Assembly (NCBI GenBank): GCA_012031225.1
Contig: JAAUTZ010000010.1
Coordinates: forward strand, 2,943 to 66,942
DNA length: 64,000 nt
Direction: 5' to 3'
Source: Chloroflexaceae bacterium
GTDB lineage: Bacteria; Chloroflexota; Chloroflexia; Chloroflexales; Chloroflexaceae
Numbering within the stretch: position 1 is the first letter of the stretch; each line of letters opens with the position of its first letter. Below are positions 7,537 through 11,624 of the stretch, piece by piece. Below the pieces are notes generated by a model. It made no database searches. It saw only the letters and a program-made list of their open reading frames with translations, and was not told the DNA's origin. Both the position numbers and the translations under genes were made by a program.

Positions 7537-10353
7537 CTACTGGCGGATAATCAAGGGGAGATAGATATTAGCGAGCCGCCGGATCGTAATCACACGCGGT
7601 TCACTGATCTGCTCCGTATTGTCTATCGCCGAAACCACAACACGGTAGTCGCCAGCTTCGACAAAGGTATTATACACGCCTCGATAGAGATTGTTGCCTT
7701 GGGCCGTCAGTTCAATTCGTGCCAGCGCACGCTCATCCACCACACCGCCAGTGGTCACAGCGGGGGTGTACGAGGGCGGGTAGATGATTGCAAAGACCTG
7801 CGCCACATTCTCATCATCCAGTACCGTCGTCTCGATATTGCCCGTATTGGTACGCAGGGGTGGCGGCGGCAACAAGTTCTGGATGAAAGGTGGGAAATTG
7901 ATTGTGGTGGGAATGCCTAAGCCCAGATCATCGGCTAGATCTTGGTTGCGGAGTTCGGGCACTTGCACCTCGACAGCGGAGCTGATAGCATCGCGGCTGA
8001 CGCGGAAGGCATCGCTCAAGGTACTGCCGCGACTCAGTTCATCCAAGAAGAAGGCCGAGAACAGCAGGCGGTTGCCATCGGGGGTAGCCCACACCGGTTG
8101 GTTGGCATTCGCGGTGGTAATCACCACGCGATTGTTGCCGGTGATGTTCTGGATGGTAGTGCTTTGGGAACCGGTGATGAAACTCGCAGATGCAGGCGCA
8201 TCTATGATGATGATAATCCGCACGCCGGGTACGCTCTGTTCGAGCGTATTGAGGTAGGTATTGAGCTGCTGCGGCGATAGCACCTGATTGCGCGAGCGAT
8301 CAAGGAAGAAGCCGGTATTGTTGCCGGGGCCTGCCAAGTAGAGGTAGAGCGGGCGTTCCTGATCTACCAGATCACGGGCAAAGGTGGTGATCGCATTCTG
8401 GAGATTGGTGAGCGTGGCGGCGGCATCGGCTCCGCTCTGGGCTGGGTCGGGGGCAAGGTAGCGCACGCGCGAGCCGGTGTAGCCCTGCGCGGCAAACACA
8501 TCCCGCACCTGTTGGGCCGTGCCAGTGCTGGCGGCTTGGAGCGTATCGGTGACGGTATCGCGGCCAGCCACCACGATCAATGCACCGGGCGGCAAGTTGT
8601 CGGCACTCGAACGCAGCGAGAGATCGTAGGTAGCATCATCGCCAAAGACCGGCGGCTGGATGGGCATGTTGCTCAGGCGCATAAAGACTGCGCCAGTCAG
8701 ATTGGCCGTAAAGGCTACGCGCACATCGGGCGTGAAGCCGGGCGCAGCCGTAATGAAGGGCGACTCGTCGCAGCCCGTTTGCAGGATCGCTTGCAGATCG
8801 GCGCGGGATGTACTCGGTGCATCAGCATTGACGAGGTAGGTCGTGCCGCTAATCACGGCAAAGGTGGTCCAGTCTTGGTCGCCTGCGCGGTGCAGGGTAT
8901 GCCGTTGCGTGCTGCCGGGTTGTAGGGTGCGGGCTTGGCGGCATTCGTCATCCGGCTCAAACTGATCAGGGCTAGGCGTGCTCGTCGGGGTAGGGGTGGG
9001 CGTGTTGGTGGCAGTGGGCGTATTGGTCGCGGTATTGGTGGGGGTGGGCGTATCGGTAGGCGGAGGCGTTTCGGTTGGGATGGGCGTATCCGTCGGCGGG
9101 ACAGGGGTGGGGAACGCAGCCACGCCCTGAAAATTGTAGTTGATGGCGTTGATCCCACCGATTGCCCAGACTGCCACTAGCCCGCGTGTGCTTGCCCCGA
9201 TTTCGGGTACACTGGCTTTCAAGCCACTGGTGCTGATCTGTTCAAGGGGGGTGAACGCAGGCGTAACGTGATTGTACAGGTGATAGAAGATCAATTCGTT
9301 GGAGAAGCCACCGCCTGAAGCGCGCCGCCGTTGAGTCATGACGATATGGGTGATGCCGCCATACGAGTGGATCTCTGGATCTTGCCCGTAGTTGAGATTG
9401 TCGTTATTGAGCAGGAAACAGGCGGGAGCATTGAAGGATGTGCCATTGGTGAGGCTGATCGTAAAGCAGTAGCTAAAGCCATTGCCGGTATTGCTGACGT
9501 AGGCGAGGGCAAGCTGATTAGTGACAGGTTCAAGGAAGATGCTGGGCTTATCGGCGATGCCAAACTGGGTCGAGAGATCGAAGAACACCGGATCACCAGC
9601 GCGGGTCAGGCGGGTATAGCCAAGCCGGAAGCGTTGGTTCTCACCATTCTGGTATTCGTACATGGCGTGGATCAGGGCTTCGGGGCCTGCGCCTTGAATG
9701 GCGATCCGCCCGCGCCGCACAAGGTAGATGTTGGGGCCTATTTCGCGGGGGATCCAGCTATTGGCCGCAGCGCGGTAGGCAAAGGCCGCCCGCGACGCAC
9801 TGCCGCCTACGCCGCGTGTCCAGAGGATATAGGGCACGTTCTCCGCATCCACCTTGATGTCGGTGCTGAAGGGCCCACTCGGCGGCACATTCACCGTCTC
9901 GAACGTCCACGCACCAGCCCCATTTGTTTCGTTGCGAGCATAAATAATGGCATTACCGGCAATGATGTATGACACATGCAGCACGCCATCACTGCCGCGT
10001 GCAATGCGCGGCTGCCCAGTAGCGAGAATGGCGTTATCATCGGAGATGACGAGCGGCGCGCCCCACTCAATGGCGGCTCCGTCAGGGGTCATTTCGCCAC
10101 GCATGTAGAAGATCGTCTGCTGATCGAAATCGCCGCCGAGATCATGCATCCAGACGGCGTGGGCAAAGCCGAGATCATCGAGCAGGACGACTGGATCAGC
10201 GACGTTGCGGGATTGCGTGCCGGGTAGCTGGCTCGGCGTATTCCACGCCGCCGCAGTCTGGATCAGCAGCAAGGCTACGAGCAGGGCCAGCAGGCTACCC
10301 AGCAGCCAACGCAGCTGGGGCGGGGTATTCCGGCAAGGGGTGCCTGTGTTCAT
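7537..10353 (-). CDS. Large exported multidomain protein (propeller-like N half, PT linker, PPC-like domain, clan-CD peptidase-like domain, Ig-like C-terminus)
   Basis: N-terminal anchor/signal LLGSLLALLVALLLIQTAAA. Linker PTPVPPTDTPIPTETPPPTDTPTPTNT. FEPDDECRQ...GDQDWTTF is pre-peptidase-C-terminal-like. PLYLYLAGPG and IIIIIDAPASASF resemble caspase/legumain-type blocks. The protein ends ANIYLPLIIRQ. Confidence 0.85.
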   Translation of the reverse strand: MNTGTPCRNTPPQLRWLLGSLLALLVALLLIQTAAAWNTPSQLPGTQSRNVADPVVLLDDLGFAHAVWMHDLGGDFDQQTIFYMRGEMTPDGAAIEWGAPLVISDDNAILATGQPRIARGSDGVLHVSYIIAGNAIIYARNETNGAGAWTFETVNVPPSGPFSTDIKVDAENVPYILWTRGVGGSASRAAFAYRAAANSWIPREIGPNIYLVRRGRIAIQGAGPEALIHAMYEYQNGENQRFRLGYTRLTRAGDPVFFDLSTQFGIADKPSIFLEPVTNQLALAYVSNTGNGFSYCFTISLTNGTSFNAPACFLLNNDNLNYGQDPEIHSYGGITHIVMTQRRRASGGGFSNELIFYHLYNHVTPAFTPLEQISTSGLKASVPEIGASTRGLVAVWAIGGINAINYNFQGVAAFPTPVPPTDTPIPTETPPPTDTPTPTNTATNTPTATNTPTPTPTSTPSPDQFEPDDECRQARTLQPGSTQRHTLHRAGDQDWTTFAVISGTTYLVNADAPSTSRADLQAILQTGCDESPFITAAPGFTPDVRVAFTANLTGAVFMRLSNMPIQPPVFGDDATYDLSLRSSADNLPPGALIVVAGRDTVTDTLQAASTGTAQQVRDVFAAQGYTGSRVRYLAPDPAQSGADAAATLTNLQNAITTFARDLVDQERPLYLYLAGPGNNTGFFLDRSRNQVLSPQQLNTYLNTLEQSVPGVRIIIIIDAPASASFITGSQSTTIQNITGNNRVVITTANANQPVWATPDGNRLLFSAFFLDELSRGSTLSDAFRVSRDAISSAVEVQVPELRNQDLADDLGLGIPTTINFPPFIQNLLPPPPLRTNTGNIETTVLDDENVAQVFAIIYPPSYTPAVTTGGVVDERALARIELTAQGNNLYRGVYNTFVEAGDYRVVVSAIDNTEQISEPRVITIRRLANIYLPLIIRQ

Positions 10354-10436
10354 CAGTATTCTTTCTCTTCAACCTCGTGGACAGACGGGCGTGGGCACTG
10401 CATCGCACGCACCCACGCCCGCTTGCTGTGCGAGTC

Positions 10437-11624
10437 CTACTCGCTACGCACGAACGGCAGCCACAAGCGAGGCGTGAGGTTGAGCGGTGCGGGTGGTGCC
10501 GTTGAGATTGCCGTCGGTGTTGCCGCGTCTGGCGGTATCGCCGTGGCTGTCGGTGTTGCCGTGGCTGGCAGCTGATCCTGCGAAAAGATGTCTGGGTAGA
10601 GGCTTGGTATCTCGATGTAGCTTCCGATGCACAGGGGTTGAGCGTCGGGAGAACACGAAATTTGTTCTTTTCGCATAGACTGTGCTGTGTTGTTCGCAAT
10701 AGTACTATTCTGCAATGTAAAAGTGCCATTCAGCACATTGCACAGCCCGCCGCCGAGACCTGAGCAATCTAACGATAAACACGTCACAACATGGTTATTG
10801 GTGACGAGGCTGTCAATCAGCGTGAGCGTACCATCATTGTAGATGCCGCCACCACAGACCGGCGTATTCCAGTAAAACTGATTGCGGCTATCACGCACCA
10901 CCACATCGCGCATGGTCAGGTTGCCCCGGTTGAGCACCGCCCCGCCATCACCCACCCCCGCACCGTCGCGCAGGGTCACGCCTTGCAGGGTGGCATTGAC
11001 TCCCGGCAACACCGCCAGCACACGAGTTTGGTTATTGGCACTGATCGCCAGTTGATCGCTACCGGGGCCAATGATGGTCAGGTCTTTAGCGATTGTGAGG
11101 CGATCCCCAAGCAGGGAGATCGTGCCGGGTTCGAGGATCTGAATGGTATCGCCAGAACGCGCCACACCGATCTGCCACTGCAACGAGCCGGGCAGATAGC
11201 TTTCCAGTGTTGTCACCAGTAGCGTCTGCGGCTCGGCAGGCAGGCTGCGGGTTGGCTGGAGGGCAACCGCAGTTTTGGTGAGGGCAAGGGCGGTAGTAGT
11301 AGCCGAATACACCTGTGTCGCAGTCGCTACTGCTTGCTCGGTGGTGGCAAAGGCCGTCTGTTCTGCTTGCCATGTAGGAGCGTAGGCCGTCCGTTCTGCT
11401 TGCGCGGTGGCGGCGTAGGCTGTATCGGTGGCGGCGCGTTCAGTCTCGTATGCGATGTCGTCCCACGTCGGGGTTGGGGTAATGGTTGATGCCCACCACT
11501 GCGCGAGGTCGCCCGATGGTGGCGTGCTGCTGTTGGCTTGCATGATGCCGATACCGTAATCTGCGAAGATGAGTAGCCCTATCGTGGACAGAAAGACCAG
11601 CAGTTGCGTTGAGAACTTGGACAC
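10437..11624 (-). CDS. Exported right-handed beta-helix repeat protein
   Basis: The ORF spans 10437..11678. I prefer GTG 11624, which is preceded by AGGGGG, giving VSKFSTQLLVFLSTIGLLIF (TM anchor). Gly-rich beta-helix repeats are present (GGAVLNRGNLTMRDVVVRDS, GGGIYNDGTLTLIDSLVTNN, GGGLCNVLNGTFTLQNSTIANN). The PT-rich end finishes RLWLPFVRSE. Confidence 0.8.
   Translation of the reverse strand: MSKFSTQLLVFLSTIGLLIFADYGIGIMQANSSTPPSGDLAQWWASTITPTPTWDDIAYETERAATDTAYAATAQAERTAYAPTWQAEQTAFATTEQAVATATQVYSATTTALALTKTAVALQPTRSLPAEPQTLLVTTLESYLPGSLQWQIGVARSGDTIQILEPGTISLLGDRLTIAKDLTIIGPGSDQLAISANNQTRVLAVLPGVNATLQGVTLRDGAGVGDGGAVLNRGNLTMRDVVVRDSRNQFYWNTPVCGGGIYNDGTLTLIDSLVTNNHVVTCLSLDCSGLGGGLCNVLNGTFTLQNSTIANNTAQSMRKEQISCSPDAQPLCIGSYIEIPSLYPDIFSQDQLPATATPTATAIPPDAATPTAISTAPPAPLNLTPRLWLPFVRSE

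Follow-up and report, generated by a model that had tools for sequence, protein, structure and literature searches.

The YLP-box of Chloroflexota exported proteins: a short tag in the place of known anchors and a candidate retention or sorting signal

Many exported proteins of a Chloroflexaceae bacterium share a tag of about nine residues, the YLP-box, and little else. It was noticed in a stretch of 64,000 nucleotides (C119:2943-66942, hereafter the window) of a 4.21-Mb assembly that comprises 205 contigs and is rated 97% complete. About 40-50 Sec-exported proteins of this genome carry the YLP-box, for the most part large surface or hydrolytic proteins with several domains. Our favoured reading, held with middling confidence, is that it acts outside the cytoplasm, where it would be read by docking and serve to retain or sort its carriers. 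A preliminary description of the window had taken it for a distinct C-terminal tag; this stands insofar as the tag is recurrent, lacks a transmembrane (TM) helix, and sits on exported proteins, but the tag already has a name and is not obligatorily C-terminal. Since it is already curated, the tag itself is not new. What goes beyond the curated entry is the existence of non-terminal boxes, the equivalence of the box with known anchors in the same slot of homologous proteins, and a partial association with PorU-like C25 peptidases.

A recurrent tag on exported proteins

In a six-frame scan of the whole genome, 42 of the 90 matches to [ILVMF][YWF]LP[ILFVM][ILVMF] end 1-9 residues before a stop codon, and the distance from box to stop peaks at 2-4 residues. 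The gene set used for counting consisted of simple longest-ORF calls (3895 open reading frames [ORFs], 3434 complete). The core [YWF]LP[ILFVM][ILVMF] occurs in the last 20 amino acids (aa) of 38 of the 3434 complete ORFs, where 4.8 are expected from its internal density and where the reversed motif, as a control, occurs twice. For the full box followed by Arg, 36 occurrences in the last 22 aa stand against 9 internal ones in ~1.2 million residues. The C-terminal excess is thus ~70-fold over the prediction from internal density, with 36-42 predicted proteins ending in this way; the comparison of C-terminal with internal positions that the preliminary description had called for, together with the reversed-motif control, places the tail far above chance.

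Alignment of 42 tails gives the form R(19)-[V24/I9]-[Y30/F9/W3]-L37-P42-[L26/F12]-[V26/I13]-[V27/R7]-R34. The box is trailed by 0-11 residues, mostly small or polar, and in 7 of the 42 tails the protein ends right at the Arg (…VVR). Its Pro and aromatic positions are kept in all 42 tails and its Leu in 37, and together with the flanking Arg they suggest sequence-specific recognition beyond mere hydrophobicity. Within groups of identical box peptides the nucleotide sequences are all distinct (6/6, 7/7 for VYLPLIVR, 3/3, 5/5, and 2/2), which points to selection at the peptide level. Positional enrichment, the reversed-motif control, and this codon diversity together rule out chance or a DNA repeat as the source of the motif.

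The proteins that bear the tag belong to the exported fraction. A signal-peptide-like N-terminus, called heuristically as a hydrophobic N-terminus with no later TM segment in complete ORFs of at least 250 aa, was found in 23 of 30 carriers compared with 241 of 2094 other ORFs (odds ratio 25, p=6e-16), in agreement with the proposal of a recurrent tag on Sec-type exported proteins. The tail is confined to a subset of exported proteins; within the window, the signal-peptide proteins at 4321, 42193, and 55852/55870 do not have it, as had been remarked. Carriers are long (median 966 aa, against 405 aa for other ORFs), and the 22 largest have only the tail in common, with a mean column identity of 13% and the L and P of the box as the invariant columns. 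Their Pfam content is typical of exoproteins and includes PKD, CarboxypepD_reg, SdrD_B, TIG, M23, S8, C25, and GH5 domains, as well as DUF11, CARDB, PPC, FG-GAP, PD40, and beta-helix domains.

The surroundings of the tail also match what had been described. It follows a Pro-rich linker (12.6% Pro in the preceding 20 aa versus 6.2%, p=7.5e-5), and it lacks the TM helix of signals of the LPXTG and PEP-CTERM type, having 7 hydrophobic residues only. In two AlphaFold models with confident domains the tail is unstructured, with predicted local distance difference test (pLDDT) values of about 60 and below 50; it therefore does not form a strand of the domain before it. A role as the last strand of a shared C-terminal domain was rejected on this ground and because the preceding contexts are unrelated and linker-like. 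Donor-strand self-complementation was rejected as well, since AlphaFold predicts no docking of the tail onto the protein that bears it.

Three tails lie in the window, and translation of the ORFs reproduced both the coordinates and the sequences first reported for them:

7537..10353, minus strand: ORF of a 938-aa exported protein, ending ...RRLANIYLPLIIRQ before the stop (ORF and translation)
7543..7566, minus strand: YLP-box IYLPLIIR, then Q and stop; C-terminus of the 938-aa protein
10437..11678, minus strand: ORF of a 413-aa exported protein, ending ...LNLTPRLWLPFVRSE before the stop (ORF and translation)
10446..10466, minus strand: variant box LWLPFVR of the 413-aa protein, preceded by R and followed by SE and stop; assigned by pattern
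2296..2887, plus strand: frameshifted gene fragment whose last frame, 2489..2887, retains an intact tail
2489..2887, plus strand: 132-aa ORF of this remnant, ending ...TRFNIYLPIVVRAASE before the stop; no signal peptide
2849..2872, plus strand: YLP-box IYLPIVVR, then AASE and stop; fits the genome consensus pattern

The genes of the 938-aa and 413-aa proteins are adjacent and co-oriented. The 938-aa protein consists of a signal peptide, a Pro/Thr linker, a C13/legumain-like clan-CD domain (7933..8595) with weak C13/caspase matches, immunoglobulin (Ig)-like modules, and the terminal YLP-box. Both catalytic residues of the clan-CD domain are lost: in this protein and the three orthologues nearest to it, AGPG and DAPAS(A/G) stand in place of the DHG and (E/D)AC.(S/A)G of 11 remoter homologues. 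Judged from these residues, the domain is catalytically dead, and the YLP-type tail is retained by all 15 aligned proteins, dead or not. The 413-aa protein is a beta-helix (PMP-repeat-like) followed by a Pro/Thr linker and the Trp-variant box. Its public record (P0029) is 395 aa long and 100% identical, implying that the start lies 18 codons downstream of that of the 413-aa ORF. The assignment of LWLPFVR draws on the pattern and on a second protein of this genome, C41_54, which ends in RLWLPFVRVAGAGGV. The remnant at 2296..2887, described as such from the outset, is a genuine broken gene, as both of its frames match ORFs of contig C190 of the same genome at 88-95% identity (C190_3, 88% over 67 aa; C190_1, 95% over 44 aa). 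It sits between an ACT-domain-like gene and a thioredoxin reductase gene.

The statement that no named family exists for this tail turned out to be wrong. Two NCBIfam models, NF050076 (sort_motif_YLP) and NF053834 (ultrashort_CTERM), both titled 'YLP-box putative sorting motif-containing protein', describe exactly such a motif, and the window tails share its sequence, position, and phylum. The curated cut-offs are 15 bits for NF050076 and 10 bits for NF053834. When isolated tails are scored, that of the 938-aa protein exceeds both (15.5 and 15.0 bits); in the genome search it reaches 14.7 bits at C119:10485-10511, or 15.6 bits with its in-frame neighbours. The tail of the remnant scores 12.8 bits with NF050076, under the cut-off of 15, and is assigned by pattern only, and so is the LWLPFVR tail of the 413-aa protein, which neither NCBIfam model matches. 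Searched against the whole genome, NF050076 gives 48 sites, of which 30 exceed the cut-off. The reach of both models is narrow, since LWLPFVR (the W variant) and tails from genus g3 (…DLPLVQR, …YIPLIGR) fall under the cut-off or remain unmatched. The NCBIfam entry provides a putative name only. A literature search found neither a paper nor a mechanism for a YLP-box in bacteria, and no paper that connects Chloroflexota with PorU or C25.

Box positions and the slot shared with known anchors

Although the tag had been regarded as strictly C-terminal, about ten boxes of the genome are N-proximal or internal. For example, the box comes right after the signal peptide in C39_9 (...VQAQGTRTL-VYLPLIR-STAPE), in C42_28 (...GQAQSPSR-VYLPLVIR-TAPP), and in a 461-aa frame on contig C125, and it is N-proximal in two giant proteins (C140_1 and a 1651-aa frame on C128). 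In C7_6, C24_1, C128_86, C45_1, and C57_1 it lies between Pro/Thr linkers, and C18_7 (1688 aa) has one box near each end. Boxes after the signal peptide also occur in other genomes (G012, G037, and G114). These positions are the main reason for preferring docking or retention over an obligatory cut and transfer, a preference that we infer from two considerations. If an N-proximal box were cut and the upstream part transferred, the protein would be discarded; if instead the downstream part were kept after the cut, a C-terminal box would be pointless.

The tail is preserved in homologues, contrary to the absence from orthologues that would have spoken against a tag. Of 28 homologues of the 938-aa protein, 20 keep it; among those with a query coverage of 37% or more, the count is 17 of 18. 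Retention extends to sequences only ~30% identical, some with variant tails (VYLPVIMK, IFLPMVSR, and ANLPLALR, for instance). For the 413-aa beta-helix protein the database searched holds no close orthologue, and among 99 domain homologues six have a YLP-box ending; these are from Chloroflexota, and one is from Chloroflexus aurantiacus. Other beta-helix homologues end in an IPTL-CTERM-like signal, a TM helix with a basic tail, a C-terminal domain (CTD) of the type IX secretion system (T9SS), or a Pro/Arg-rich tail. The last of these is near-identical in roughly a third of the metagenomic beta-helix homologues (P0031-P0124), in the form …TPTPR..PTPRPRPTPPPRP at the free C-terminus.

The same alternation is seen within the genome, where C42_31 ends in a box and its paralogue C90_9 has a TM helix and a basic tail in that slot. 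Relatives of one and the same FN3-like domain are likewise followed by differing endings, namely a T9SS CTD, a TM anchor, or a YLP-box. That the box takes turns with known anchors in homologous proteins is a classical argument for a sorting or anchoring signal.

The FN3-like domain itself was considered as a specific reader and rejected. In C42_31 (L021:13015-13506) it comprises ~95 aa, has a confident fold (pLDDT 90-97), and lies beside or inside C25 peptidase genes of six distant lineages. Its pattern is …W.T..E…GF…Y.F.D…YYYWLEDVD..G…GP, and no Pfam or NCBIfam model matches it. However, it has 66,918 relatives at E<=0.001 (including P0132-P0280), its structural neighbours are only Ig/FN3 folds, and it typically stands right before whichever anchor its protein has. 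It is a generic pre-anchor module, a spacer and not a reader.

Two alternatives bear on these positions. The box could be a self-sufficient hydrophobic mini-anchor that dips into the membrane's outer leaflet, or else into the atypical outer layer, and is held by its Arg residues, with no reader involved. The seven hydrophobic residues between basic ones, the replacement of TM anchors by the box in paralogues, and the failure to find a reader would fit such an anchor. Nevertheless, strict conservation of Pro, aromatic, and Leu residues over deep divergence is unexpected for a generic hydrophobic patch, and a stretch of seven residues with a Pro in it would hold proteins of 1000-1700 aa only weakly, so that we consider this improbable. 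Equally improbable in our judgement is that the box is a processing or maturation site where a secreted protease cuts to separate pro-regions or modules, its C-terminal copies being leftovers of junctions or regulators of activation. Boxes do occur at domain boundaries, flanked by Arg, and several carriers are peptidases with propeptides. Yet the tails that stop at the Arg (7 of 42) leave nothing further to remove, a cut would otherwise take 9-15 residues from a linker with no evident effect, and what homologues have in the same slot are anchors, not cleavage sites.

Distribution in the phylum and candidate readers

Distribution was examined in a sample of 201 Chloroflexota genomes with a rated completeness of 85% or more, and in 14 control genomes. 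NF050076 matches over the cut-off were found in 56 of the 201 Chloroflexota genomes, with up to 34 matches each, and in one of the 14 controls. Only 12 of the 201 have at least five matches. These YLP-rich genomes come from the window's own family (genera g1, g2, and g4), from families f2 and f3 of the same order, from family f6 (two genomes, with 26 and 34 matches), and from family f53 (one genome). Genus g3 (Chloroflexus-like) scores 1-3 and yet possesses divergent tails (...YYIPLIGR, ...IDLPLVQR). Two kinds of match to the YLP hidden Markov model are probably false positives: a conserved ~930-aa protein in genomes of family f13 (L045, L051, L052, and L053), which lack C25, where RRVYLPLVIRAPAEALGAVD occurs within the protein, exactly 125 residues before the C-terminus, and histidine kinases ending in …GSTFTVYLPLV.

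Peptidase_C25 (PF01364) was detected in only 32 of the 201 genomes, including all 12 YLP-rich ones (genome-level Fisher p=3.5e-11), and the association holds at family level (7/2/3/41, p=2.5e-5). One locus outside the window, C42:18507-33663 (L021), is an operon-like array that unites five YLP-type proteins with two C25 genes:

GH43 protein ending in …VLLPLVVRGTGE, and rhamnosidase ending in …VWVPLVVRE
Ig-like protein whose signal peptide is followed by a box
C25 protein of 1006 aa (long form), with a propeptide and a box tail
163-aa protein (C42_31), translationally coupled, between both C25 genes; tail RLFLPLVVVGR
C25 protein of 715 aa (short form, C42_32), with a lipobox-like LAAC and no box

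A protein with GGDEF, EAL, and PAS domains is encoded downstream of this cluster. The two C25 proteins match PF01364 at 1e-68 and 5e-57, the catalytic His and Cys are conserved in both, and the best sequence match of both among solved structures is PorU (6za2), the T9SS sortase. The AlphaFold model of the long form (C42_30, the only one modelled) has a predicted template modelling score (pTM) of 0.78 and matches PorU best, with E=9e-28 over 819 columns, and RgpB at 4e-17 in the catalytic domain only. In family f33 and in three genera of Chloroflexales, the C25 gene adjoins that of a large YLP-tailed protein. Among the Chloroflexota C25 proteins themselves, 13 of 19 end in a box and two more carry one internally.

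On this evidence the box could be the recognition signal of a PorU-like C25 peptidase, which would cut at one of the flanking Arg residues and transfer the cargo to an envelope glycan independently of T9SS. The C42 array, the conserved catalytic pair, the resemblance to PorU, the C25 genes of the YLP-rich genomes and their proximity to genes of tailed proteins all speak for it, and the lipobox-like LAAC suggests that the short form could be membrane-tethered. Several findings nevertheless make us regard it as unlikely. C25 was not found even at E<=1 in four genomes (G020, G114, G173, and G165) despite genuine C-terminal tails, the tails in C25-less genomes being of the form …KKVFLPLVVR, …FKVFLPLVRR, and …PYRVYLPLVQR. 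Conversely, G098 and G156 are C25-positive and gave no YLP match. Since most C25 proteins end in a box, C25 may be a favoured cargo, as gingipains are for T9SS. Phylogeny and lifestyle also confound the association. A cut and transfer at the box would make no sense where the box comes after the signal peptide, and AlphaFold did not place the C25 protein's own tail in its active site but left it unstructured and away from it. Slightly less probable still is a related reading in which the box, free of any membrane segment, is a position-independent docking peptide of an undescribed surface-display system and is read in the Chloroflexota envelope by a PorU-like clan-CD peptidase module. Here its own box would keep the long C25 form at the surface, while the short form, as a lipoprotein, would be tethered to the membrane. 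The system would then be related to the PorU sortase step but independent of T9SS, and would operate in a phylum that has no classical outer membrane. The SprA model TIGR04189 had no match in this genome, nor did it match any control genome.

Sortases are candidates in view of the L-P core that the box has in common with LPXTG, and six matches to PF04203 were found in this genome. We nonetheless consider it very improbable that these enzymes act on the box as a divergent sortase signal (L-P-x...). Sortase occurs in 138 of the 201 genomes and is thus not specific to carriers, and none was found in the box-carrying G012 or in G069, a single contig of 2.6 Mb rated 99% complete with YLP-tailed proteins; on these grounds sortase was rejected as the reader. 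In addition, the box has neither a TM helix nor the Thr-Gly of the classical signal. A point in favour comes from family f2, which belongs to the same order: a sortase gene is located ~1 kb from a long-form C25 gene, and the C25 product ends in …QLYLPLTVAAP or …YYLPMLRLDH. This pairing of sortase and C25 is conserved in six genomes (G177 [C1:380058-382420], G092:C7, G137:C2, G047:C1, G056:C65, and G119:C241). The C13/legumain family, to which glycosylphosphatidylinositol (GPI) transamidase belongs, was rejected as well, with PF01650 in one of 201 genomes, no association, and a catalytically dead copy in the window.

A tag read by docking and its relation to known systems

How, then, could such a short peptide work? 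Under the docking reading, the box (basic-[VI]-[YFW]-L-P-[LF]-[VI]-[VIR]-R, ~9 residues) would be an address or retention tag recognized by a protein partner outside the cytoplasmic membrane, and it would keep or place its carriers in the unusual, multilayered envelope that these bacteria have. Docking could be non-covalent or involve a side-chain link, whereas the classical route of holding the protein in the membrane, cutting it, and transferring it appears less likely. We infer docking from three features of the box: its length does not suffice to cross a membrane, the linkers that carry it are flexible and Pro/Thr-rich, and it is also found after signal peptides and between domains; a retention function and a reader are likewise proposed on this basis. 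Cryo-electron tomography has shown that envelopes of Chloroflexales are multilayered and partly 'diderm-like', with an outer layer of unknown composition (PMC7332563). Such an envelope makes a dedicated placement signal plausible and could provide the target layer.

Several observations weigh against this reading. About 80% of the boxes are C-terminal, which a purely position-independent docking peptide would not need. The conserved Arg on both sides of the box would fit a cleavage site equally well. The neighbourhoods of 38 carrier genes yielded no recurrent shared candidate, and no reader was identified among neighbours, sortase, C13, and C42_31. Moreover, in two AlphaFold models the tail was not docked onto its own protein.

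Comparison with characterized systems underlines both likeness and difference. Similar to the tripartite signals (LPXTG/sortase, PEP-CTERM/exosortase, GlyGly-CTERM/rhombosortase, and IPTL-CTERM), the YLP-box is a short signature on signal-peptide proteins of unrelated domains, fills the same slot in homologues, and has a basic residue after a hydrophobic stretch. In contrast to them, it has only 7 hydrophobic residues followed by 0-11 others instead of a TM helix of ~20 residues, and it can be N-proximal or internal. Tripartite signals have a dedicated enzyme, while for the YLP-box sortase does not co-occur specifically (exosortase and rhombosortase were not searched).

The T9SS CTD and PorU of Bacteroidota offer a second parallel, as both tags are found on large hydrolases and adhesins, and all YLP-rich genomes encode PorU-like C25 peptidases, which often bear the tag themselves, just as PorU carries a CTD. 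However, the T9SS CTD is a folded beta-sandwich of 70-100 aa, whereas the YLP-box has ~9 residues and is unstructured in the models, and some box-carrying genomes do not have C25.

Very short, sequence-specific terminal motifs that are read by docking are well known, such as KDEL, the peroxisomal targeting signal PTS1 (-SKL), and the donor strands of chaperone-usher and type V pili, and type V pilins are matured by an Arg-specific C25 peptidase. The YLP-box resembles KDEL and PTS1 in being very short and sequence-specific and, if our reading is correct, in being read by docking. Unlike these motifs, which need a free C-terminus, it tolerates 0-11 trailing residues and internal sites. We know of no acceptor groove or receptor for it.

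Hot-spring mats, soils, and wastewater sludge all harbour abundant Chloroflexota, bacteria whose envelope architecture is still disputed. A large part of the enzymes that this phylum secretes or displays on its surface, including hydrolases, peptidases, and adhesin-like proteins, bears the YLP motif. The question of its reader is narrowed by our results: sortase is unlikely, the Pfam C13 family is not associated, and PorU-like C25 is associated but not indispensable. The tag also occurs, and presumably works, at more than one position within a protein. If it does act as proposed, it would offer biotechnology a very compact display tag, and Chloroflexota would possess a nine-residue sorting or retention tag, free of a TM helix, that is mechanistically unlike the characterized bacterial systems.

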